Of a stretch of DNA of 48,643 nucleotides, positions 9,991 through 44,388 are shown one piece after another. The translations under genes were made by a program, and so were the position numbers. Origin of the DNA: an uncultured Solibacteraceae bacterium (lineage in GTDB: Bacteria > Acidobacteriota > Vicinamibacteria > Vicinamibacterales > SCN-69-37); the NCBI GenBank assembly GCA_964517075.1, contig CAZFAT010000062.1:1-48643 (forward strand), in the 5' to 3' direction. The notes under the pieces are model-generated. The model saw only the letters and a list, made by a program, of their open reading frames with translations. It did no database searches and was not told where the DNA came from. The stretch's first letter is position 1; the number at the start of each line of letters is the position of its first letter.

Positions 9991-11450
<1,460 letters not shown>

Positions 11451-27989: not shown

Positions 27990-28019
27990 GGCCGGTTATG
28001 GTACCCCAGGACGCTTGCG

Positions 28020-30308
28020 TTATCGCCCAATCACCCTCAGCCCCGCGACCGACCAGAGTTGTCCACCCTGCGACGTGGTCAACGTCAGTGTCACGCGATC
28101 GCCGACCACGCCGTCAGGCAGCGGGACGAGGACCGGCGCGCGCCGCAGATCCAGGAGGATGCCGCGCGCCGCGAAGCCGGCGGTGTCGCCCTCCCAGACG
28201 ATCGTCTTGCCACCCCCGGCGTCACCGACCGCCACCTGCAGGCGCTTCGGGTAATCGTAGGTGTACGGACCGAGGTCCAGCTCGAGGCGCGTCAGTGGTC
28301 CGGAGGCTTGAAGCACGAGATCGAGGCGCGCCCCCGCGGCCGGCGTGCCGGAGTGCCACCGCGTGTCGGGCCGGCCGTCGGTGATCAGCGGCAGGAGGTC
28401 GCGGCTGGCGTTCGCGCTGATCGCGGCGATCGGCACCGGGGTCCCCTCCAGCGGCGGCAGCGGCCGCTCCGGCAGCCTGTACATCGGACCGTCGTCGGTC
28501 GCGCCCATCCGCTCGGCGCCGGGCTGTTCGGCGATGAACGCTTCCGTGGTCCCGGAGGGATCCCGTCCGCGGTGCACGAACACGAGCACACCGCCGTACT
28601 GGCGCAGCACGTCGAGGGCCACGCGATCGTGGCTGGCGAGGGCGTTCCGCAGAGGAAAGTAGTGCGGCGGCGCGTAGCCGCTGAAGCCGTTCACGAGCGG
28701 CACGCGGTGGCCCACGGCACGCAGCATCGCCGCGGTTTCAGCAAAGACGTCCGCCATCGGCAGTTCGAGCACGGCGGTGGATCCGGCACGCGCGCTGGCG
28801 GACAGATCGAGCGGCGCCGGCACCGACGCGGTCGGCATCCGCGGCACCCAGCCTTCGAGGGTAATCACCACCGCGAGCACGGCGACAATCGGCGCGAGTC
28901 CGGCCCGGCCGTTCGAGAGCCGGGCGAAGGCAAGGGCGGCGAACTGCGACAGGCAGAGCACGAACAGCATGGCGAACCGGGCGGGGACGCGAAGCGCGCG
29001 GCCGCCGGGCAGGTCCATGACCCAGAGGTACGGCGCGCGCGGCCAGAAGACTTCGCCGAAGGCCCGCGCCACGGGACCCAGCGCGAGGATGAGCATGACG
29101 ATGGCGGCCGCCCCGTAGAAGAGGAAAACGGATCGTCGGCGCCAGCCCTGACGGGTGCGCGGATCGGCCAACCACGCCACCGCCAAGAGGCACACGACGA
29201 TGAACAACGGTTTTCCCGCCCGTGTCATCGACACGGGGACGCCGAAGGGCGACGCGTGCCAGGGGCCGAGCCACATGGTCAGGAGCACGGCCTCGGCGAG
29301 GTACGCGCCGACAAGGGCCACCCCGATGCGCCAGCGTGACCAGCGTGTGCGGCCAGCGGCCCGCCAGGCCATGAATCCGCCGGCCAGCGATAACGCCATG
29401 ATCACCAGGCCCGGATACAGCTCACCCTCTTGCCTGGGCGTCAGGGTCCAGAACGCGGGCAGCCAGGCGGTGCGCGACACCCACAGGCCGCTCAGGTCCG
29501 CGGCAAACTGGCTGATTTCACCGGGATCGCGCGCGAGACCGAGCGCGCCCTGACGCTGGATGTAGCCGATCAGGACCGGCGCCATGGCGAGCGACGCCAC
29601 GGCCAGGACGCCGCTGATGGCGATCCAGAGCCGCCACGACCGGGCGAACCACAGCATCCACAACCCGACGAGCACGCCGAAGTACATCAGGAAATAGCCG
29701 CTCGTCAGGCCGTTGAGCAGCCAGCACACGCCCGCCAGCGCGAGGAATCGCGCGCGCGGCGACTCCAGGTAGCGGTGCAGGCCGAGCAGGCAGAGCGGCA
29801 TCCAGCAGGACCACAGCACCTGCAGGTGGGGCAACTGCGCCGCGCGATACGGGTTGAAGCCGAACGCGAGCCCGGCCAGCAGCGCCGCGTCATGGCGTCC
29901 GGTGAGCCGGTGCGCCAACGCATGCGCGGCCAGAGCGGCGGCCGGAAACGACGCGAGAAATGCCACGTTGTAAGCCACGACGTGGCTCGCGCCCGCCCAC
30001 TGGAGCGGCGTGGTGAGCGGCGTCAACGCCAGGAGCGTTTCCGACAGAGCAAACGCCCCGGGCGTGGGAAAGAAAATCGGCGCGTTCCACCAGGCCGGCG
30101 TGAGCGGAACCGCGTGGGCGTTCCACCAGAAGATCCACGCGTTCAGAGCGGGATCGCCCGCGTCGAACGGGAGCCGCGTGCCCAGGGCGCCGAGGAGCGG
30201 CCAGCCGTAGACCAGCGCGAGAACGACGTACAGGGCCGAGACCCGCGTCCAGGGCGATCGAATCCACTGACGAGAGCGAGCCCGCGTCTGGTCCGCTCCG
30301 GCGTCCAT
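28020..30308 (-). CDS. polytopic membrane protein (GT-C-like) with C-terminal discoidin/F5-8 type C-like domain
   Basis: The ATG at 30308 (ATGA overlap with the upstream gene) gives MDAGADQTRARSRQW..., with an LPFDAGDPALNAWIFWW first-loop acidic motif and many TM segments. The C-terminal 150 aa (ISANASRDLLPLITDGRPDTRWHSG...) look like a galactose-binding/discoidin fold. The upstream 375 aa of the 1137-aa track ORF overlap the next gene out of frame and are rejected. Confidence 0.7.
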   Translation of the reverse strand: MDAGADQTRARSRQWIRSPWTRVSALYVVLALVYGWPLLGALGTRLPFDAGDPALNAWIFWWNAHAVPLTPAWWNAPIFFPTPGAFALSETLLALTPLTTPLQWAGASHVVAYNVAFLASFPAAALAAHALAHRLTGRHDAALLAGLAFGFNPYRAAQLPHLQVLWSCWMPLCLLGLHRYLESPRARFLALAGVCWLLNGLTSGYFLMYFGVLVGLWMLWFARSWRLWIAISGVLAVASLAMAPVLIGYIQRQGALGLARDPGEISQFAADLSGLWVSRTAWLPAFWTLTPRQEGELYPGLVIMALSLAGGFMAWRAAGRTRWSRWRIGVALVGAYLAEAVLLTMWLGPWHASPFGVPVSMTRAGKPLFIVVCLLAVAWLADPRTRQGWRRRSVFLFYGAAAIVMLILALGPVARAFGEVFWPRAPYLWVMDLPGGRALRVPARFAMLFVLCLSQFAALAFARLSNGRAGLAPIVAVLAVVITLEGWVPRMPTASVPAPLDLSASARAGSTAVLELPMADVFAETAAMLRAVGHRVPLVNGFSGYAPPHYFPLRNALASHDRVALDVLRQYGGVLVFVHRGRDPSGTTEAFIAEQPGAERMGATDDGPMYRLPERPLPPLEGTPVPIAAISANASRDLLPLITDGRPDTRWHSGTPAAGARLDLVLQASGPLTRLELDLGPYTYDYPKRLQVAVGDAGGGKTIVWEGDTAGFAARGILLDLRRAPVLVPLPDGVVGDRVTLTLTTSQGGQLWSVAGLRVIGR

Positions 30309-32230
30309 CAGTTCGTCCCCGGCTGGAAGACGAGCGTCGGCGCTGGCTCGGGCGGCACGGCGCGCAGACCATCGTCGACGCCCGTGACGATGACCGCCGG
30401 GTTCGGAGGTGGATCGCGCAGGTCGTACAGGAACAGATGGCCGGGCTCGTCGTAGACCGCGAGCGGCGGTCCTTCCAGCTTCGAGACGGTTCCAGAACCG
30501 TCGAACCGGCGCACGACCTCGGGAAGCTCCCACGGCTCGACGAGGAGGTAAGGGTGCGCGCCGTGGCTGTCGAGCCACGCCACGGCCCGGTCGAGCCACC
30601 CGGGGTCCAGTTGGTCGTACCGCAGGGTCATCCGGCTGCCGTAGTAGCGGACCGTCCCGCTGTGCTGCATGGAGATGATGACGCTGTTGGGCGGCGTCAG
30701 GCGCTCGACCATCCGGGCGGCCGTGATGTAGCGCCGTTCCCCGCGCCATTGATCGAACACCGGCACATCCGCGACGACACCGGCCTGAAAGAGTAGCTGC
30801 AGCACGACACCGGCCACCACGGCGGCGCGCGCGAAGCGGCCGCCCGGCTGCCAGATGCCCATCGCGACGATGCCGGCACCGACCATCATGAACGGCCAGG
30901 CCGTCAGGAGGAATCGGAGATACCACCAGGCGTCGAAGACGAGATACGCGACGTATTGCGCCCAGGTCGAGAAGACGAACAGGGCCGCGATGACCACGCG
31001 GCGCCGTTCGCGAAGGTCCGGCCAGAGCCAGGAGAACGGCAGGGCCAGCGCGATGAGGCCGGCCACCGCCACCGGCGAGTGCGTCTGCACCAGCCAGATG
31101 AGATAGCGCCGGACGTTGGGACGGATGTGTTCCCACGCGAAGAGGTCGCTCAACCGACCGTAGCCTGACAGGAAGGGCGATCCGTACAAGTCGTTGTTGA
31201 TCGCGCCGACCGCGATGACACCTGGCAGCACGCCGAGGAAGAACAGCACGGCGAGCCGGAACGCACGGCCGCGCGACTCGCGCCTGAAGAGATCGGGCAG
31301 GTAGTAACACCCCGCAAAAGCGGCGAGTGGCACGAGGTTGGGCCGGATCATCACCGCGACGCCGCTCAGCACACCGGCGGCGAGGGCGCTTCTCGCGCCC
31401 GGGCCCGTCAGAAGGTAGAAAGCCGCCGCCCACATGGCCGCCACGGGCACGTCGGTCATGGGCGGCATCAGCATGAACAGCACGGCCGGACTCGTGGCGA
31501 CGAGCGCCGCGCCGATCAGTCCAGCGCCGGGTGAGCCCAGCCGGCAGCCGATGCCGTAGGTGGCCAGCACGAGCAGGGCGCCGAGGAGCGGCACGACGTA
31601 GAACAGCGCGTCGTGGCCGCCGATGGCCTTGAAGACCGCGAAGATCAGCGGCAATCCCGGTGAGTAGATCGGCACGATCGACGGGATGTCGTCACGAAAC
31701 GTCGCCTTGTAGCCGAGCGGCATGAACGTGTCGCGGCCGCGCGGCCACGGCACCTCGCCGGCAAACGGCTGCGCGATCGCCAGCCGGCCCTCGAGCCACA
31801 GGTCGGCCTGGCTCACGTAGCCGTAGGCGTCCGCGCCGCCCGCGCTCTTCGTCGCGAAAATGGCGCCCAGCAGGAAGACGCCGGCTGCCATGGCGATGGT
31901 GGCGGTCCGCGGCGACGGCAGCCATCGGGCCACGCCGCGGTCCCATGCGCGAAGGAGCCGTTCGAACGAGTGGAGGAAATTGCGCCAGGCCGGGAGAGGT
32001 CGCCCGCCGAGGGCGACAAACGCGATGGCGCCGGCCGCGACGACCCACAGGGCGCGCAGCGGCCGATGTGCGCGGATCTCGACGCCGGAGATTCGCACCT
32101 CGAAACCGCCGGTCACGTAGAGCAGCGGCACTGCGGCGAGGCCGATCAGGACCAGCGTGAACGCCGCGTGCCGCAGCACGCGGCGCGTGCGGCCTTCAGG
32201 CCGGCTGGCCGGCAGGTCCAAGGGCGTCAT
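30308..32230 (-). CDS. GT-C fold glycosyltransferase (ArnT/PMT-like), paralog 2
   Basis: The ATG at 32230 (ATGA overlap with the upstream paralog) gives MTPLDLPASRPEGRTRRVLRHAAFTLVLIG. It shares GADAYGYVSQADLWLEG, YSPGLPL, IRPN, LYGSPFLSGYGR, YLRFLLTAWPF and SGTVRYYGSRMTLRYD blocks with the adjacent gene. At least 10 TM segments. Confidence 0.75.
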   Translation of the reverse strand: MTPLDLPASRPEGRTRRVLRHAAFTLVLIGLAAVPLLYVTGGFEVRISGVEIRAHRPLRALWVVAAGAIAFVALGGRPLPAWRNFLHSFERLLRAWDRGVARWLPSPRTATIAMAAGVFLLGAIFATKSAGGADAYGYVSQADLWLEGRLAIAQPFAGEVPWPRGRDTFMPLGYKATFRDDIPSIVPIYSPGLPLIFAVFKAIGGHDALFYVVPLLGALLVLATYGIGCRLGSPGAGLIGAALVATSPAVLFMLMPPMTDVPVAAMWAAAFYLLTGPGARSALAAGVLSGVAVMIRPNLVPLAAFAGCYYLPDLFRRESRGRAFRLAVLFFLGVLPGVIAVGAINNDLYGSPFLSGYGRLSDLFAWEHIRPNVRRYLIWLVQTHSPVAVAGLIALALPFSWLWPDLRERRRVVIAALFVFSTWAQYVAYLVFDAWWYLRFLLTAWPFMMVGAGIVAMGIWQPGGRFARAAVVAGVVLQLLFQAGVVADVPVFDQWRGERRYITAARMVERLTPPNSVIISMQHSGTVRYYGSRMTLRYDQLDPGWLDRAVAWLDSHGAHPYLLVEPWELPEVVRRFDGSGTVSKLEGPPLAVYDEPGHLFLYDLRDPPPNPAVIVTGVDDGLRAVPPEPAPTLVFQPGTN

Positions 32231-34083
32231 GGGGCAAACACCAGCGTCGGCGCCGGCACCGGCAAAGCGGCGCGGAGGCGGTCCGTGAAACGTTCCGTCA
32301 CAACCACCGGGGGCGCGATCAGGCCGCCGGCCGGCTCCGGGGCCGACAGATCGTACAGGCGGATCGTCTCGTGGCTGCGGTACTCGAGCATCGGGGGCCT
32401 GCCGATCCGCTGCGCACGGCGTTCGCCGGAGAACCGCGCCGCAAAGGGCTCGATCTCCCATTCCTCGAGCACCGCGTATACCGGCACGCCCCGCGCGGTG
32501 AGCCACTCGACGCCCCGGTCAAGCCAGCCCTCGTCGAGGATGTCATACCGAATCGTCATGCGGCCGCTGTAGTACCGGAGGCTGCCGCTGTGAATCATCG
32601 CGAGCACGGCGCTGTTAGGCGGCGTCGCGTCGCGCACGAGCCGGGCCACGGCAGCGAACCGCCGGTCGCTCTGCCACGCCCTGAACGCGCCCTCCTGCGC
32701 GGCCTGGCGCCAGCACGTGATGCCCAGTGCCAGCACGAAACCTGCGGTGACGAGGGTCAGCGACGGCCGATCGCGCCGGGTCAACCCCACCGCCACCACA
32801 CCCACGCCAAGCATCACGAAGGGCCAGGTTGGGAGGAGGAACCGAAGGTAGCGGAAGTTGTCGAACACGAGATACGCGAAATACTGCACCCAGGTCACGA
32901 CCACGAACGCGGCAATCATCGCGAGGGCGCGACGGTCCGCGATGTGGGGCCAGACGCGGCGAAGCGGGACCAGGACGACCGAAAGTCCCACGAGTCCGAT
33001 CACGGTTTGCGTGTCCACGAACCACGAGAAGTAGTTGCGGATGTTCGGCAGGATGTTCGCCCAAGCGAACTGATCGGAGAACCGTCCGTAACCCGAGACG
33101 AACGGCGAGCCGTACAGCGACTGGTAGATGGCGGCAATCGCCAGACCGGACGCGACGAGAGGCACACCGAACGCGAGACCGGAGGCGATGCGATGACGCC
33201 GGCCGGCGCCGGGAGGAACCTGCCGACAGACGGCGTAGAGGCCCGTGACCGCGGCGACCAGGAAGAGGTTGGGCCGGATCAGCATCGCAACGCCAGCCGC
33301 GATGCCGGCCGCCGCGGTCGCGGGGACGCCCCCCACGAGCAGGAAGTAGATCGCCACCGTCCAGGCGCCGGCCGTGGCGACGTCGCTCATCGGCACGACG
33401 AGGTGCAGCAGGAACACCGGGCTGGTCGCCACGAGCCAGGCGGCGATCAGGCCGGCCCGCGACGAGCCCAGGCGGCGACCGATGCTCCAGGTGGCCAGCA
33501 CCATCAGGCCGCCGAACAGCGGCACGACCGCGAACAGCGCCTCCTGCCCGCCCACGGCCTTCGCCGCCGCCATGAGCAGCGGGAGGCCCGGCGAGTAGGT
33601 CGGGACGTTCGCCCACCGGCCCTCCTCCTCCACGGGGCGGTAGCCGAGGGGCGCGAAGCTCCATCGCTTCGAGGGCCAGGGCACGTGCTCGGCCCAGGGC
33701 TGCGGCACGTGCAGGTTGCCGTCCAGCCACAGGTCCGCCTGGCTGACGTAGCCGTACTGATCCGGCCCGTTTGCGGCGGTGGTGTTGTAAGCGATGCCGG
33801 CCGCAACGACGGCGCCCGACATCGCAAGGACCAGGCCGCGATCGCCCAACGGGGCGACGGCCCGGGTCCAGAGCCGCTCGGATCGCTCGACGCCGTTGGC
33901 GACCACGAAGACGGTCAGCGCCAGCGCGGCGAGGATCAGGGGCCGGAGCGGCTCGTAAGAGGTGACGGTGGACCCGAAGAGTTGGAACTCGAACCCGCCG
34001 TGGAAGGCGATGACGAAGGCCCAGACCAGGGCGGCGACGGCCAGCGCCAGGGCCGCCACGCTGATCGAGCGTCTTGATGTCAC
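32227..34083 (-). CDS. GT-C fold glycosyltransferase (ArnT/PMT-like), paralog 1
   Basis: 618 aa, GTG start. Blocks GPDQYGYVSQADLWLDG, YSPGLPL, IRPN, LYGSPFVSGYGR, YLRFLLPTWPF and SGSLRYYSGRMTIRYD are collinear with the downstream paralog. Confidence 0.75.
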   Translation of the reverse strand: MTSRRSISVAALALAVAALVWAFVIAFHGGFEFQLFGSTVTSYEPLRPLILAALALTVFVVANGVERSERLWTRAVAPLGDRGLVLAMSGAVVAAGIAYNTTAANGPDQYGYVSQADLWLDGNLHVPQPWAEHVPWPSKRWSFAPLGYRPVEEEGRWANVPTYSPGLPLLMAAAKAVGGQEALFAVVPLFGGLMVLATWSIGRRLGSSRAGLIAAWLVATSPVFLLHLVVPMSDVATAGAWTVAIYFLLVGGVPATAAAGIAAGVAMLIRPNLFLVAAVTGLYAVCRQVPPGAGRRHRIASGLAFGVPLVASGLAIAAIYQSLYGSPFVSGYGRFSDQFAWANILPNIRNYFSWFVDTQTVIGLVGLSVVLVPLRRVWPHIADRRALAMIAAFVVVTWVQYFAYLVFDNFRYLRFLLPTWPFVMLGVGVVAVGLTRRDRPSLTLVTAGFVLALGITCWRQAAQEGAFRAWQSDRRFAAVARLVRDATPPNSAVLAMIHSGSLRYYSGRMTIRYDILDEGWLDRGVEWLTARGVPVYAVLEEWEIEPFAARFSGERRAQRIGRPPMLEYRSHETIRLYDLSAPEPAGGLIAPPVVVTERFTDRLRAALPVPAPTLVFAP

Positions 34084-38578: not shown

Positions 38579-39928
38579 TTAGAGCGGCCCCTTCCCCCAC
38601 GGCCCCGTGATCGCCACGGTGATGCCCGGCGACTGGATGTTCACGAACAGCCATCGCCCCTCCGGGCTGTAGCAGACGCCGCACAGCTCGCTCTGGCGGT
38701 AGTCGCGCGCCGGCACGCGATCGTTGTACGCGGTCGTCAGGTTGACGTTGTTAATCGCGAAGATGAAGCTCTGTCCCTCGAGCGTGAGGCCGACGAGCCG
38801 CTCGCCCTCGGCCACGGCATTGCCGTCCTCGGCGAGGACGAGGCCGCCGCGCGGGGTGACCGCCATGTTGTCGGGGTTGTTGCATTCGATTGCCGCCGGC
38901 GAGTCGTAGATGAGCTTCAGCGTCTCGTTGTCCGGGTCGTACTCGAACACCTGGCCCTCGGCCACTTGGCCGCCGCTCGTGGAGAGGAAGTAGCCCGTGC
39001 GATCGCCCCACCAGGCGCCTTCCAGCCGATGGAACTGCGCGGCGCCAGCGGCGCGGCCCTGTACGAAGGGCGACTGGGTGGCCGCGTGCGGATCCGGCAC
39101 CCGCACCCAGGTCACCGGCCAGGTCGTGCCCAGCGGATAGGCCAGACCGAGATTGATGTCCGGCCGGCCCTTGACGCCGAGCATGAACAGCTCGCCGCCT
39201 TCCTTGAGCTTTCCCTTCTCGTTCGGCACGAAGCGGTAGAAGCCGCTCGTCACGCCCGCGTCCTCGGTCTCGTACACGTTGCCGCTCCGCGGGTCGACCA
39301 TGACCGCTTCGTGCGAGAACCGGCCCATGTCCTTGAGCGGCGTCGGATCGCCCTGCTCCTTGCCGACATCGAAACACCAGCCGAGATCGGGGTCGGTCGT
39401 TTCCTCGCACGTGATCCAGGTGCCCCAGGGCGTCACGCCGCCGGCGCAGTTGCGCCGCGTGCCCGTCAAGGACGCCCACGCGCGCTTCCAGGTGCCGGTC
39501 GTCGTGTCGAAGAGCAGGTTCGTCGTGCCGCCACCGCTCACATCCGAGGCCTTGAACGACCCGTCCGCGACGAACGGCGGCCCGGCACCGATTTCGTGAT
39601 TGCGGACGAGAACCACGTGTCCGGCCTCGTCACCGCGATCGACGACGGCCATGCCGTCGTGAGAGGCAGGACAGCGCAGCCCTTCGGCAATGAGATCGCC
39701 CGTCCAGGCGAACGAGCGGTACCGAAAGCCGTCGGGCAGTTGCAGCAGCGGCAGTCCGGTGGTCTCGTCGAGCTTCGGGCTGACCGGGCCGTACGGTCCC
39801 TGCACCCGCGGCGACTCGACCGCGCGCCGCGCCAGCAGTTCCTCGAGCGAGAACATCCACAAGGCCCCGGCGCCCATGGCGCCGCGGCGAAGGAACGTCC
39901 GCCGGTCGTGGTTCACGAGTTCCGCCAT
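38579..39928 (-). CDS. Tat-exported PhoX/DUF839 family protein (putative phosphatase)
   Basis: The ATG at 39928 is preceded by AAGGAGGA. Twin-arginine signal (HDRRTFLRRGAMGAGAL). NCAGGVTPWGTWITCEE, NPDN and SPEGRWLFVNIQSPG are characteristic of PhoX/DUF839. The upstream part of the 602-aa track ORF is rejected. Confidence 0.8.
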   Translation of the reverse strand: MAELVNHDRRTFLRRGAMGAGALWMFSLEELLARRAVESPRVQGPYGPVSPKLDETTGLPLLQLPDGFRYRSFAWTGDLIAEGLRCPASHDGMAVVDRGDEAGHVVLVRNHEIGAGPPFVADGSFKASDVSGGGTTNLLFDTTTGTWKRAWASLTGTRRNCAGGVTPWGTWITCEETTDPDLGWCFDVGKEQGDPTPLKDMGRFSHEAVMVDPRSGNVYETEDAGVTSGFYRFVPNEKGKLKEGGELFMLGVKGRPDINLGLAYPLGTTWPVTWVRVPDPHAATQSPFVQGRAAGAAQFHRLEGAWWGDRTGYFLSTSGGQVAEGQVFEYDPDNETLKLIYDSPAAIECNNPDNMAVTPRGGLVLAEDGNAVAEGERLVGLTLEGQSFIFAINNVNLTTAYNDRVPARDYRQSELCGVCYSPEGRWLFVNIQSPGITVAITGPWGKGPL

Positions 39929-39969
39929 CGCATCCTCCTTTCGTCCACCCTGCGGCCTGCCCGAACCGA

Positions 39970-40296
39970 CTAGTACAACCCGCCTTCTTTGGTCTGAGAG
40001 ATCACGACGAGCATCGCGACAACTCCGCCACCAATCACGTACGGCCATGGCGTTTTCCAGAAAGACCTGCTTCCGGTCGCTTGCGCCGCGACCGGCGCGG
40101 CTCGGCGCAGGTCCGGGCGCTTCGAGGTCTTGGCCATCTCGGCGATCCCGGCGGATCTGGCGGAGAAGTCGTATTCGATCGTCGCCGGTGCCGCGGGCGG
40201 TACCGGCGCTGGCGATTTGGCTTCGGCACCCGCCGCGAACGCAGGGCGCGCCCCGAGCCACGTGACGAGGACGACGAACAGCACCACACGCTTCAT
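39970..40296 (-). CDS. small hypothetical exported protein with C-terminal hydrophobic anchor
   Basis: The ATG at 40296 is preceded by AAGGGAG. Signal peptide MKRVVLFVVLVTWLGARPAFA, a Pro/Ala-rich middle and a C-terminal PWPYVIGGGVVAMLVVISQ helix. No recognisable family. The rest of the 390-aa track ORF is rejected. Confidence 0.5.
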   Translation of the reverse strand: MKRVVLFVVLVTWLGARPAFAAGAEAKSPAPVPPAAPATIEYDFSARSAGIAEMAKTSKRPDLRRAAPVAAQATGSRSFWKTPWPYVIGGGVVAMLVVISQTKEGGLY

Positions 40297-40440
40297 GACC
40301 TGCTCCCTTCGGGTGAGCCCTGAGCGGCGACCTGTTTCTACCACGAGACGGGACGGCCGCGCTCCAGCCGGCGGGTTGCGCCGGCATCGGCCGGGCCGAA
40401 GCCCCGCGTTATGATCGACGGGCTCACTCAAGGAGTCCTT

Positions 40441-41323: not shown

Positions 41324-42475
41324 CTACAGCAGCAGCGCCTCCACCCGATGCGCCTGCACCATGTCCTCATCGCCGGACCACTTGAAGATCGTGAAGCGGC
41401 CGTCCTGGGAAGCGACGAGGGCGGTGGCGTCCGGTTGATCCTGGACGAACTGCGCAGCGGAGAAGTGGCGCGTGCCGCCAAGCTGGTAGGGATTGACGAC
41501 TGTCACGACGGCGCCTTCGACCGGCTCGCTCAGCAGCACGCGCTCGACCGGCGGACGCCCGCGGCGGCGGGTAATCTTCGCGCCAAAGGCCATCAACTGG
41601 TAGCGCTCGGTCAGAAGCGTGGCGCCGTCCACGGCCGTCAGGCCGGCCAGGGCGTCGACCGCGCGCCGTAAATCCTCCTGCCATTCGTGCGAGGCCTCGA
41701 CCCGGCCGGGAGCCTCAATGAGCGCGGACAATTCCGAGTACGGCGGCGAGACCGCGTACGTCACCGGGTGGACGATGGACTCGGGCCACTCGCGGTTGTC
41801 GGAGGGAATCACCAGCAGCGCGCCGCCGCGCTGGTGCGCGCGCATCGAGGCCGCAATCTGGACGAGCACATTCATCGAGTCCGGCACGAGTCCAGGCAGA
41901 TCGACACCCAGCAGTGAGGCGACAACGCCCGGGCAATCCGGCCGGCGGGCGCGCCCCTCGTCCACGACCTTGATGGCGTTGCCTTCGAGCACGACCATGT
42001 TGACGAACTTGCCGAACGACTCGCTGCGATGTTTGATGACCAGCAGTCCGGAGGTCACGACTTCGAGCACGAAGCACAGCGCCGGCAGGCGGCGCGTCGT
42101 CCCCCAGACCCGCAGCTCGCCGCCGAAGTCACGCCAGACGCCCAGATGGATGCCCGGACGCTCGACCGCGGGCGCGAGCTTCGCGAGGGCCGGGGCCGAG
42201 AGCGGGAGCGGACGCTCGAACGTCAGGGGACTGCCGGCCGGATCGGGCGGCACGAAGGCCAGCGAGATGCGCGGCAGCACCCCCTCCTCGCGCCGGAGGC
42301 TGGCCCAGAACGCCGCGTCCACGATGGCCTCGATGGCGTCGGCATCCGGCTCGGGCGCCAGATCCTGCCGTCCCTGGGCCCGCGCCGCCTCCAGGTGACG
42401 CGCGAAGTGCTCGCGCGCACGGAGCGCCACCGCGTGCGCCGCCGGGTACGGTGGGGTGACGGGCGTCGTGGACAC
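41324..42475 (-). CDS. hypothetical protein with diverged C-terminal DAC (DisA_N, diadenylate cyclase-like) domain
   Basis: 383 aa, GTG start. The C-terminal half aligns by eye to DAC motifs. RGGALLVI corresponds to GALIVI. AVDGATLL...LMAFGAKI corresponds to LHDGAVII...AA. LGGTRHFSAAQF corresponds to LGTRHRAA. ATALVASQDGRFTIF corresponds to VVSEETG.IS. The N-terminal ~190 aa have no family I recognise. Confidence 0.65.
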   Translation of the reverse strand: MSTTPVTPPYPAAHAVALRAREHFARHLEAARAQGRQDLAPEPDADAIEAIVDAAFWASLRREEGVLPRISLAFVPPDPAGSPLTFERPLPLSAPALAKLAPAVERPGIHLGVWRDFGGELRVWGTTRRLPALCFVLEVVTSGLLVIKHRSESFGKFVNMVVLEGNAIKVVDEGRARRPDCPGVVASLLGVDLPGLVPDSMNVLVQIAASMRAHQRGGALLVIPSDNREWPESIVHPVTYAVSPPYSELSALIEAPGRVEASHEWQEDLRRAVDALAGLTAVDGATLLTERYQLMAFGAKITRRRGRPPVERVLLSEPVEGAVVTVVNPYQLGGTRHFSAAQFVQDQPDATALVASQDGRFTIFKWSGDEDMVQAHRVEALLL

Positions 42476-42496
42476 GGGGTCTCAGGATCTTAGATT

Positions 42497-42577
42497 AGTT
42501 TGAGTTCTGAGTCGTGAGTTCAGAGTTCCCGACTGCGACCAGAGCCTCAAGACTCATGACTCAAAACTCAGAACTAC
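42497..42577. repeat. heptamer-periodic hairpin element G (GAGTTCN / NNGACTC type)
   Basis: Left arm GAGTTCT GAGTCGT GAGTTCA GAGTTCC (42502-42529). Right arm AAGACTC ATGACTC AAAACTC AGAACTA (42549-42576). The GTTCTGAG/CTCAGAAC core pairs 42504-42511 with 42567-42574. It sits in the divergent 5' region between the DAC-like and MutS-like genes. Confidence 0.7.
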
Positions 42578-44388
42578 CGCGAAGCCCCTCAGGCCACAAT
42601 AACGCCGTGACCGATGCCGGCTCCATCGACGCGGAGTACCGCCGGCGGCTCGAGGCCCGTCGCGCGGCCCTGGCCACCGAGGAGCGCACGCACGCGCGCT
42701 TCAGTTACGTGCGCCTGCTCATTGCCGCGAGTGTGCCCGTATTACTCGCCCTGCTGGGCTGGACTCCGTGGCTGTTCGTCCCTCCCCTGGCATTTGCCGT
42801 CGTGGCGCTGCTGCACGGCCGGCTGCTGAACGCGCGGGATCGAACGGCATCCGCCGTCGCCCATTACGAACGCGGACTCGCCAGGCTGGCGAATGACTGG
42901 ATCGGCCGCGGCCGGCCCGGGGAGGCGTTCCTTCCGGCCGACCATCTCTACGCCGCCGACCTGGACCTGTTCGGACGAGGCAGCCTCTTCGAATTGCTGG
43001 CCACGATGCGTACGCAGATGGGCGAGGAGATCCTGGCGCGCTGGCTGCTCGAGCCGGCGCCGCCTGATGTCATCCGCCAGCGGCAGGCGGCCGTCGCCGA
43101 GTTGGTGCCGCGAATCGACCTGCGCGAGACCGTGGCGGTGATGGGTGATCCCCTCCGCGTGAGCGTGGACGCCAGCCTGCTTCGACGGTGGGCCACTTCA
43201 CGCATCGTCCTCAGCAGCACCGTCGCGCGCCCGATGCTCGCGCTGCTGAGCGCGGCCACGATCGGCGCGCTCGTGACGTGGGTATCGACGGGAGCGTGGG
43301 GCGGCGTGGCGGCCGCACTCATCCTCGTCCAGTCGCTCGTCGCCCAGGCGCTCAAGCCCCACGTCCTCGCTGTGATTGACGCCGTCGACGCGCCCGCGCA
43401 CGACCTGGATCTCGTGGCCGAACTGCTCGCCCTCGTTGAGCGCGAGTCATTCGCGAGTCCGTGCCTGACCGACCTGCAAACCACCATAGCCACAACCGGC
43501 CGGACCGCGTCGGCAGAGATCAACCGCCTCTCGAAGCTCGTCGCCATGCTGGCGTCACGGCGCAACGTGATGTTCGCGGTACCGGCGGCCCTGATGCTCT
43601 GGGCGACGCAGTGGGCGTTCGCGATCGAAGCCTGGCGCCGCCGCTCCGGGCCGCACGTGCCCCGGTGGCTCGACGCCATCGGCGAGTTCGAGGCGCTCGT
43701 CGCGCTCGCAACCTTCGCCGCCGAGCACCCGACCTACGTGTTTCCGGCGCTGACCGACGGGCCGGCCATGGTCGCCGCCACCGCGCTGGCGCATCCCGTG
43801 CTGCCGTCCACCGCCGTGACGAACGACGTGGCTCTGCACAGCAGCGGGATGGCGCTGCTCGTCGTCAGCGGATCCAACATGTCAGGCAAGAGCACGCTCC
43901 TCCGCACACTCGGCGTGAGCGTCGTTCTCGCACAAATGGGAGCGCCGGTGCGCGCGACGGCGTTCCGGCTGACGCCGCTGGCGGTCGGCGCGGCCATCCG
44001 CGTGCAGGATTCACTGACCGATGGCCGGTCACGGTTCTTCGCCGAGATCACCCGCCTGAAACAGATCGTCGATCTCGCCACCCGCTGCCAGGGCGGCGTG
44101 CTGTTCCTGCTCGACGAGATTCTGGCCGGCACGAACTCCCACGATCGCCGGCTGGGCGCCGAGGCGGTGCTCGCGGGCCTGATTGACCTTGGCGCCATCG
44201 GCCTCGCCACCACGCACGACCTGGCGCTCGGCGAGATTGCCACACGCCTGGCGGGCCGTGCGGAGAACGTTCACTTCGTCGATCACCTGGCGGATGGCGT
44301 GCTCACGTTCGACTATCGGCTCCGCGCCGGTATCGTGCAAAGCAGCAACGCGCTGGCACTGATGCGGTCGATCGGATTGAAGGTGTGA
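42556..44388 (+). CDS. membrane-anchored MutS-related ATPase (MutS domain V only)
   Basis: N-terminal hydrophobic helices (VRLLIAASVPVLLALLGWTPWLFVPPLAFAVVALL and LALLSAATIGALVTWVSTGAWGGVAAALILV). C-terminal MutS ABC-ATPase domain (SGSNMSGKSTLLRTLG Walker A, LFLLDEILAGTN Walker B, ATTHD). No mismatch-binding domain. The start is uncertain (GTG 42514, ATG 42556 or GTG 42607) because element G covers the 5' end. Confidence 0.75.
   Translation: MTQNSELPRSPSGHNNAVTDAGSIDAEYRRRLEARRAALATEERTHARFSYVRLLIAASVPVLLALLGWTPWLFVPPLAFAVVALLHGRLLNARDRTASAVAHYERGLARLANDWIGRGRPGEAFLPADHLYAADLDLFGRGSLFELLATMRTQMGEEILARWLLEPAPPDVIRQRQAAVAELVPRIDLRETVAVMGDPLRVSVDASLLRRWATSRIVLSSTVARPMLALLSAATIGALVTWVSTGAWGGVAAALILVQSLVAQALKPHVLAVIDAVDAPAHDLDLVAELLALVERESFASPCLTDLQTTIATTGRTASAEINRLSKLVAMLASRRNVMFAVPAALMLWATQWAFAIEAWRRRSGPHVPRWLDAIGEFEALVALATFAAEHPTYVFPALTDGPAMVAATALAHPVLPSTAVTNDVALHSSGMALLVVSGSNMSGKSTLLRTLGVSVVLAQMGAPVRATAFRLTPLAVGAAIRVQDSLTDGRSRFFAEITRLKQIVDLATRCQGGVLFLLDEILAGTNSHDRRLGAEAVLAGLIDLGAIGLATTHDLALGEIATRLAGRAENVHFVDHLADGVLTFDYRLRAGIVQSSNALALMRSIGLKV

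Follow-up and report, generated by a model that had tools for sequence, protein, structure and literature searches.

Catalysis by diadenylate cyclases (DACs) requires two DAC domains, as has been established for DisA and CdaA. To our knowledge, the Acidobacteriota are not classical model organisms for cyclic di-AMP (c-di-AMP). The subject of this report is a DAC-like gene and its divergent neighbour, a MutS-like ATPase gene, on a 48,643-nucleotide stretch of DNA from an uncultured Solibacteraceae bacterium (contig CAZFAT010000062.1 of assembly GCA_964517075.1), the whole of which is referred to below as the window. The DAC-like protein, of 383 amino acids (aa), carries an N-terminal DACNV domain, reportedly defined by Galperin (J Bacteriol, 2023), and a C-terminal half that is predicted to adopt the DAC fold.

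The RHR motif of DAC domains is called essential in DisA-type enzymes on the basis of a triple AAA mutant only, and this replacement abolishes ATP binding in Mycobacterium tuberculosis DisA (PMC3328451). PanS DACs are active with DGF and GGR in the places of DGA and RHR, and some PanS enzymes make 3'3'-cUA (bioRxiv 10.64898/2026.08.10.743927). The names of DACN-type domains are traced, in two preprints (bioRxiv 10.64898/2026.08.10.743927 and 10.64898/2026.08.10.743972), to Galperin's 2023 census of DAC architectures. For the DACNV proteins themselves, no relevant paper on 'DACNV' or 'CdaV' was found in the searchable literature. An earlier note on this DNA, made from the sequence alone, had considered neither protein type at the locus to have an established function, and this was borne out, the searchable literature yielding no experimentally established function for the DACNV-DAC type or for the membrane MutS-like type.

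The reading preferred here, to which we give a probability of about 0.6, has two parts that are judged jointly: that the 383-aa protein is a DACNV-DAC cyclase whose productive pairing is gated by its sensor domain, and that the adjacency of the MutS-like gene is inherited gene order in two sub-clades of one Vicinamibacterales family, rather than a functional, operon-like module.

The C-terminal half of the DACNV-DAC protein

The gene and its parts are arranged as follows.

41324-42475, minus strand: DACNV and DAC-like gene, 383 aa, an open reading frame (ORF) with its stop codon at 41324-41326 (Pfam, homologues, AlphaFold2 model)
41888-42475, minus strand: N-terminal domain, residues 1-196, of which the Pfam DACNV part is nucleotides 42095-42364
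41327-41878, minus strand: predicted C-terminal DAC-fold domain, residues 200-383 (Foldseek, motifs)
41621-41629, minus strand: DGA motif, D283 G284 A285, invariant in all three family alignments
41462-41473, minus strand: TRHF, T335 R336 H337 F338, which is RHR with the second Arg changed to Phe

An AlphaFold2 model of the full-length protein, built from a 74-sequence alignment, has a mean pLDDT of 88.9 and a pTM of 0.87. When it was compared by Foldseek with the Protein Data Bank (PDB), the top 50 matches were all DAC domains (E from 4.9e-5, the best, to 1e-3; probability 1.0), with a TM-score of about 0.55 for the C-terminal half when normalised to isolated DAC domains. The matched structures include DisA of M. 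tuberculosis and T. maritima, CdaA/DacA of Bacillus, Listeria, Staphylococcus and Streptococcus, and Mycoplasma CdaM. The modelled structure is decisive here: the C-terminal half is predicted to have a DAC fold, as the earlier note had claimed, and to keep most of the nucleotide-binding constellation. The assignment rests on the predicted fold and the motifs, since links to canonical DACs by sequence comparison are marginal.

The motifs that had been recognised in the sequence, GALLVI, DGA, GTRH and a terminal SQDG, all stand where they had been placed, with GGALLVI at residues 217-223 and SQDG at residues 356-359. The long insertion described between the first two motifs is likewise present and amounts to about 24 residues, the distance from the GG motif to DGA being 66 residues as against about 42 in the CdaA of the same genome. 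Across 32 members of the family (28-52% identity) there is no variation at D283, G284, A285, R336 or S356, and H337 and D358 reach at least 90% conservation. The stretch aligned by hhalign pairs GGTRHF-SAAQFVQDQPDATALVASQD with CdaA LGTRHR-AAIGLSEESDAIAVVVSEE, the part that runs from GTRH to VASQD, and places F338 opposite the second Arg of the CdaA RHR.

The RHF motif

The change of the second Arg of RHR to Phe had been pointed out previously, and the window protein does lack a complete RHR motif. Among 231 close relatives, however, the residue that follows RH is Leu in 184, Phe in 42, Met in 3, and Tyr and Glu in one each, with Arg in none; RHL accounts for 80% and RHF for 18% of these proteins. 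A wider set of representatives has L, Q, F, I, R, K or A at this position. Because Leu or Phe follows RH in 226 of the 231 close relatives, and Arg in none, RHF is a trait of the family or clade, and not a lesion or private mutation of the window gene. The activity of PanS enzymes with DGF and GGR further means that an incomplete RHR does not by itself signify an inactive enzyme.

The N-terminal domain and the DACNV family

The N-terminal domain of about 190 residues, which the earlier note could not assign, is a catalogued one: residues 38-127 match PF21751, 'Probable sensor domain DACNV' (Pfam; E 3.5e-30, 104.5 bits against a cut-off of 27). Its residues S59, E64, W124 and G125 are invariant across the family, which shares the motifs FWAS..EEG and VWG. 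The protein is soluble and without a transmembrane (TM) helix, the sole hydropathy peak, at residues 129-149, forming a beta-hairpin in the AlphaFold2 model. It had been described as lacking both the TM helices of CdaA and the helix-hairpin-helix (HhH) domain of DisA, in agreement with hydropathy and the model for the former and with the absence of a Pfam match for the latter. Searches of NCBIfam and PADLOC with the 383-aa protein gave no match.

Both ORFs, of 383 aa on the minus strand and 624 aa on the plus strand, are present in the ORF list at the coordinates claimed for them, and at least 8000 homologues were found for the DACNV protein and at least 7390 for the MutS-like protein, the best ones 55-96% identical. 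Given thousands of homologues for each, and this level of identity among the best, both genes are real and under selection. Homologues of the DACNV protein carry PF21751 and the NCBI name 'putative sensor domain DACNV-containing protein', and come from Vicinamibacterales and other Acidobacteriota; an exhaustive search of representatives at 50% identity gave 2299 clusters at E <= 1e-3, of which 220 reach E <= 1e-30. The 383-aa protein is an ordinary member of this large, catalogued and uncharacterised family.

Members of the family are also found in cultivated Bacteroidota. Orthologues that are 54-58% identical occur in Pontibacter vulgaris, several Dyadobacter, Pedobacter superstes and Rufibacter hautae (our loci L060, L066, L076, L087, L093, L095, L099 and L100), an identity that is unusually high between Bacteroidota and acidobacterial proteins and suggests horizontal transfer or strong constraint. 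These cultivated bacteria provide tractable organisms for experiments, the orthologues of Dyadobacter, Pontibacter and Pedobacter being 55-58% identical.

When the N-terminal domain was modelled alone (pLDDT 83), Foldseek found nothing in the PDB at E <= 1e-3. Its weak matches, at ranks 1-29, were all DAC domains (E 0.08-1.4, TM-score about 0.3), which hints that the modelled DACNV domain is possibly a degenerate DAC-like fold. An internal duplication of N- and C-terminal halves was considered and not adopted: hhalign comparisons of the N-terminal domain with the C-terminal domain and with CdaA, and a search of the PDB with the N-terminal profile, gave it no support in sequence, the weak Foldseek ranking being the only hint of one. 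If DACNV were a degenerate DAC copy, each chain would hold a dead and a live cyclase domain, paired as an intramolecular pseudo-dimer, within a single-chain asymmetric DAC family that has RH[L/F/Q] for RHR. The dead half might then gate or redirect catalysis (e.g. towards a product other than c-di-AMP, or nucleotide sensing), and might feed the MutS-like ATPase where sub-clades of Vicinamibacterales keep both genes side by side. We offer this as a speculation with a slim chance of being correct.

c-di-AMP machinery elsewhere in the genome

A check for c-di-AMP pathway genes, suggested in the earlier note, found a canonical folP-cdaA-cdaR(YbbR)-glmM arrangement on another contig of the window's genome (C76, L021:3-3128), with a CdaA that scores 142.6 bits for DAC and also has CdaA_N, and a c-di-AMP riboswitch of the ydaO type (RF00379, 79 bits) on contig C3 at 10353-10501. 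The operon and riboswitch indicate that c-di-AMP signalling operates in this acidobacterium. A phosphodiesterase of the PgpH type was searched for in the genome and not found, no search having been made for GdpP or AtaC. The cdaA gene is present in 40 of 41 relatives.

The same genome holds a second DACNV-type gene, truncated at the start of contig C79 (8-319, L022), which keeps GMRHRS. Its full-length counterpart in a genome of the same family (G006; L113:1767-3239, minus strand) encodes 436 aa, with a DACNV match at 2e-13 and the same GMRHRS. Of the 22 genomes with the window-type gene, 17 also gave a second, weaker DACNV-type match and five have none; the two paralogs are never adjacent, lying either on separate contigs or at a distance of more than 150 kb. 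The second paralog could be a partner of the window-type protein or a cyclase with a distinct function. Within the family, 22 of 24 genomes carry the window-type gene itself; among 16 other families in the order, only one or two do. The CdaA operon, the riboswitch and the two DACNV paralogs together suggest a multi-input c-di-AMP network in abundant soil bacteria. The DACNV-DAC family spans Acidobacteriota, Gemmatimonadota and Bacteroidota.

The MutS-like neighbour

The neighbouring gene, its parts (in the residue numbering of the 624-aa ORF) and the region that separates it from the DACNV gene are as follows.

42476-42606, no strand: divergent intergenic region, 131 bp, which holds a heptamer-repeat hairpin
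about 42496-42577: low-GC heptamer-repeat hairpin, about four GAGTTCN heptamers facing inverted copies
42607-44388, plus strand: MutS-like ATPase gene, 593 aa from a probable GTG start at 42607 (the maximal ORF, 42514-44388, has 624 aa)
42694-42828, plus strand: TM hairpin 1, residues 61-105 (hydropathy)
42976-43161, plus strand: MutS_III, residues 155-216 (Pfam)
43219-43377, plus strand: TM hairpin 2, residues 236-288 (hydropathy)
43861-44370, plus strand: MutS_V, residues 450-619 (Pfam)
within MutS_V, plus strand: Walker A GSNMSGKS, residues 453-460, and Walker B LFLLDE, residues 530-535, both intact

The protein had been described as a membrane-anchored MutS paralog reduced to the ATPase domain. 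The membrane anchor is confirmed, its hydrophobic segments forming two hairpins, with an additional and weaker segment at residues 352-371. The reduction to a single domain is not, as MutS_III (E 1.7e-8) is matched in addition to MutS_V (E 7e-21). No mismatch-binding domain I and no Smr nuclease domain were found with Pfam or NCBIfam, and the NCBIfam models of MutS and MutS2 score 84-116 bits against cut-offs of 400-642, placing the protein outside MutS1 and MutS2. The MutS3 subfamily is defined by a MutSac domain close to the C-terminus, with or without MutSd and with no other MutS domain, and has no assigned function (Lin, Nei & Ma 2007, PMC2190696); by domain content, the neighbour fits there. 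It might work as an ATP-driven dimeric head of the ABC type that the MutS core helices connect to a small bundle in the membrane, and would have no role in mismatch repair.

The start of the gene is probably GTG 42607, because the closest homologues among the matches listed (87-94% identity) are exactly 593 aa long and relatives align only from residues 24-41 of the 624-aa ORF, most of them from residues 31-41. The first 93 bases of the longer ORF fall in the low-GC hairpin element, which overlaps two upstream candidate start codons. The hairpin is predicted to be stable (-34.3 kcal/mol, z -4.24), and none of 200 shuffled sequences was as stable. A search with an exact form of the repeat pattern matched at this copy only.

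Gene order around the DACNV gene

Linkage of the two genes was examined in 22 genomes of the same family that have a full-length DACNV gene, including that of the window (G000). The MutS-like gene is the immediate, divergent neighbour in four (G000, G019, G009 and G018), adjacent but convergent in two (G001 and G024), and 1-3.3 kb away in three (G015, G021 and G022), so that the pair is linked within 3.5 kb in 9 of the 22; in the others it is unlinked, the genes being on different contigs or at least 17 kb apart. In three metagenomic relatives (L116, L117 and L118), the genes are adjacent in one and about 2 kb apart in two. Other genes lie between the pair in five linked relatives (G022, G021, G015, L117 and L118), and the three inserts that were identified differ: a hybrid histidine kinase in G022, a binding protein of the NMT1 type in L117 and a PQQ-repeat protein in L118. 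The G022 kinase, a hybrid sensor kinase of 903 aa (L104:6645-9356, plus strand), lies 65 bp upstream of the DACNV gene on the same strand, and may form with it a local operon, peculiar to that genome, by which DAC-type signalling is joined to two-component signalling.

A maximum-likelihood tree built from 39 DACNV proteins confines the linked cases to two supported clades (support 100/99, with 8 of 10 members linked, and 98/93, with 4 of 4 linked). The other 25 rows of the tree are all unlinked, and include other Vicinamibacterales, Pyrinomonadaceae, Longimicrobiaceae, Pontibacter and Dyadobacter. With all linked cases in two clades, the adjacency is the outcome of one or two evolutionary events, and is now eroding.

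A wider search, started from a 14-sequence alignment, gave at least 600 matched stretches, of which at least 577 encode relatives. From these, a genome collection at species level supplied 80 loci of Acidobacteriota, Gemmatimonadota and Bacteroidota, each taken with flanks of up to 8 kb, and no MutS-like gene was found by tblastn within 8 kb at any of the 80; the commonest neighbour cluster of any kind occurs at 13 of them. Conversely, at least 10 related genomes have the MutS-like gene but no DACNV gene, for instance G002, G020 and G025, whose orthologues are 54-58% identical. The window, G019 and L116 have a longer block in common, composed of the MutS-like gene, the DACNV gene, g37442, Omp85 and speA (arginine decarboxylase), and with such a shared block the adjacency looks like inherited gene order.

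Interpretation

Under the preferred reading, the 383-aa protein is a soluble, stand-alone member of the DACNV-DAC type with a strongly diverged DAC domain. Two chains would pair through their DAC domains, which would face each other in the manner of DisA and CdaA; each domain would bind one ATP through DGA, TRH and S-x-D, and the product of the pair would be c-di-AMP or another, related cyclic dinucleotide. Control of productive pairing would lie with the tightly packed N-terminal domain, in answer to a cytoplasmic cue, and a c-di-AMP network that already has a housekeeping CdaA would thereby gain a second input, which is conditional.

Several observations weigh against this reading. The Pfam DAC model (PF02457) scores 13 bits against a cut-off of 27 (E 0.076), below its gathering score, and covers only residues 334-363. 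Comparison by hhalign with the genome's CdaA, as a single sequence or a 25-sequence profile, extends over only 25-27 columns (best E 0.0044), and profile searches of PDB sequences with the DACNV-DAC protein gave no match. The RHR motif is considered essential in DisA-type enzymes, and the close clade never has its second Arg; activity could therefore be lost or changed. No enzyme assay of any member of the DACNV-DAC family was found in the searchable literature. As for gene order, adjacency is kept where the immediate flanking genes (dienelactone hydrolase, PhoX, GT and VOC) are not shared, and also in the convergent orientation of G001 and G024, which is more persistence than neutral gene order might predict.

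Some of these points lend themselves to a different reading, in which the DAC-like domain has lost its cyclase activity and binds c-di-AMP or ATP made by CdaA, as a sensor or adaptor, that is, the protein is a pseudo-enzyme or receptor. A hydrophobic residue follows RH in 229 of the 231 close relatives, SEE has become SQD, the Pfam DAC model stays below its cut-off, CdaA in 40 of 41 relatives makes a second cyclase dispensable, and in M. tuberculosis DisA, AAA in place of RHR abolishes ATP binding (PMC3328451). However, family members of 28-52% identity show little or no variation at the Asp or Gly of DGA, at the first Arg and the His of RHR, or at the Ser and the acidic position of the last strand, a pattern typical of retained catalysis. 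Moreover, DACs with DGF and GGR are known to be active (bioRxiv 10.64898/2026.08.10.743927), and no paper was found that examines the second Arg of RHR on its own. A receptor of this kind is thus conceivable, and we regard it as unlikely beside an active cyclase.

The earlier note had proposed a two-gene signalling or conflict module, in which a generator or sensor of a nucleotide signal is paired with a membrane ATPase effector. The pair does lie within 3.5 kb in the nine same-family genomes and three metagenomic relatives, and has persisted among differing immediate flanks and through a change to the convergent orientation in G001 and G024. Nonetheless, the module is not supported, as the linkage is limited to two clades and is found at none of the 80 wider loci, with unrelated genes inserted between the pair in five linked relatives. 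Nor do the two genes, for the most part, co-occur in other genomes: each is also found without the other, the MutS-like orthologues in genomes that lack a DACNV gene and the DACNV genes of Bacteroidota and Gemmatimonadota without an adjacent MutS-like gene. PADLOC has no match for the DAC-like protein, and the P-loop matches of the MutS-like protein are at chance level (E 0.003-0.03). The longer syntenic block, in turn, accounts for retention. A general module is accordingly quite improbable, although, given how the pair has persisted, with one local inversion among the cases, there is still a slight chance of a functional link that is specific to the lineage. The value of these data is mostly negative, in that the cyclase and membrane ATPase pair is not to be pursued as a conserved system.

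A further possibility is a hetero-oligomeric cyclase, in which the RH[L/F] protein of the window type (type 1) and the RHR-keeping paralog (type 2) would form an asymmetric active site. The second DACNV-type match in 17 of the 22 type-1 genomes, which in G006 is a DACNV protein with GMRHRS, is in line with it, as are the requirement of DAC catalysis for two DAC domains and the asymmetry that DAC dimers of PanS can show (bioRxiv 10.64898/2026.08.10.743927). The paralogs are never adjacent, however, and five type-1 genomes have no type 2, which makes the arrangement very unlikely. A role in anti-phage defence, as a DAC of the CdaG/DS-2C or PanS kind, brought to mind by the novel N-terminal domains DACNG and DACNH of DACs recently shown to act in defence (bioRxiv 10.64898/2026.08.10.743927 and 10.64898/2026.08.10.743972), is hardly credible and was rejected: PADLOC found no defence family, with no match for the DAC-like protein and chance-level P-loop matches only, the neighbours examined are housekeeping genes that include no effector of the 2TM-beta type, CD-NTase or mobile-element gene, and the near-core gene (22 of 24 same-family genomes), 55-75% identical across phyla, has a different domain architecture.

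Other features of the window

The G+C content of the window is about 68-70% throughout, and the DACNV/MutS-like locus does not form a compositional island. An AT skew of +0.25 to +0.26 over the 6 kb at 28001-34000, as against about zero elsewhere, coincides with very long minus-strand ORFs at 28020-31433 and 30308-32506. At 38579-40387, on the minus strand, lies a gene for an alkaline phosphatase of the PhoX type, in which about 150 extra N-terminal residues precede a twin-arginine-like signal, RRTFLRRGAMGAGA; its true start is therefore probably internal to the maximal ORF. PhoX and the adjoining dienelactone hydrolase are missing from the otherwise syntenic block of G019 and L116.

Comparison with known systems

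The window protein shares with CdaA (DacA) the predicted DAC fold, the equivalent order of DGA, TRH and the strand with Ser and an acidic residue, and an expected need for dimerisation in catalysis. It differs from CdaA in that it has no CdaA_N TM domain and does not lie in a cdaA-cdaR-glmM operon, and in that the second Arg of RHR is gone, SEE is replaced by SQD, and about 24 extra residues separate the first two motifs. With DisA, which provides the best structural matches (9y4s, 9y9y and 3c1y), it shares a soluble, multi-domain architecture. The order of domains is different, however, as the DAC domain of DisA is N-terminal and followed by a helical linker and HhH, whereas that of the window protein is C-terminal, after DACNV, and without HhH.

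The CdaG/DS-2C proteins (DACNG-DACNH-DAC) and the minimal DACs of PanS resemble it in having a diverged DAC and N-terminal domains of unknown function, and they are active despite an incomplete DGA or RHR (bioRxiv 10.64898/2026.08.10.743927 and 10.64898/2026.08.10.743972). In one of these two 2026 preprints, DACNH is reported to be distantly DAC-like, and the DACNV domain may be likewise. The N-terminal domains and the length of these proteins are different, and so is their setting, in defence islands or CBASS with 2TM-beta effectors that are absent at the window locus.

The neighbour, for its part, resembles the MutS3 subfamily in having only MutSd (domain III) and MutSac (domain V), with the ATPase C-terminal, no domain I or Smr and no known function, and differs from it in its membrane hairpins, of which the description of the subfamily makes no mention (PMC2190696). 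The closest likeness is to other DACNV-domain DAC proteins, which share PF21751, a length of about 380 aa, a C-terminal DAC-like half and solubility, hundreds of them being 55-96% identical to the window protein. Nothing sets the window protein apart from these, its RHF being one of the two common variants in the family.

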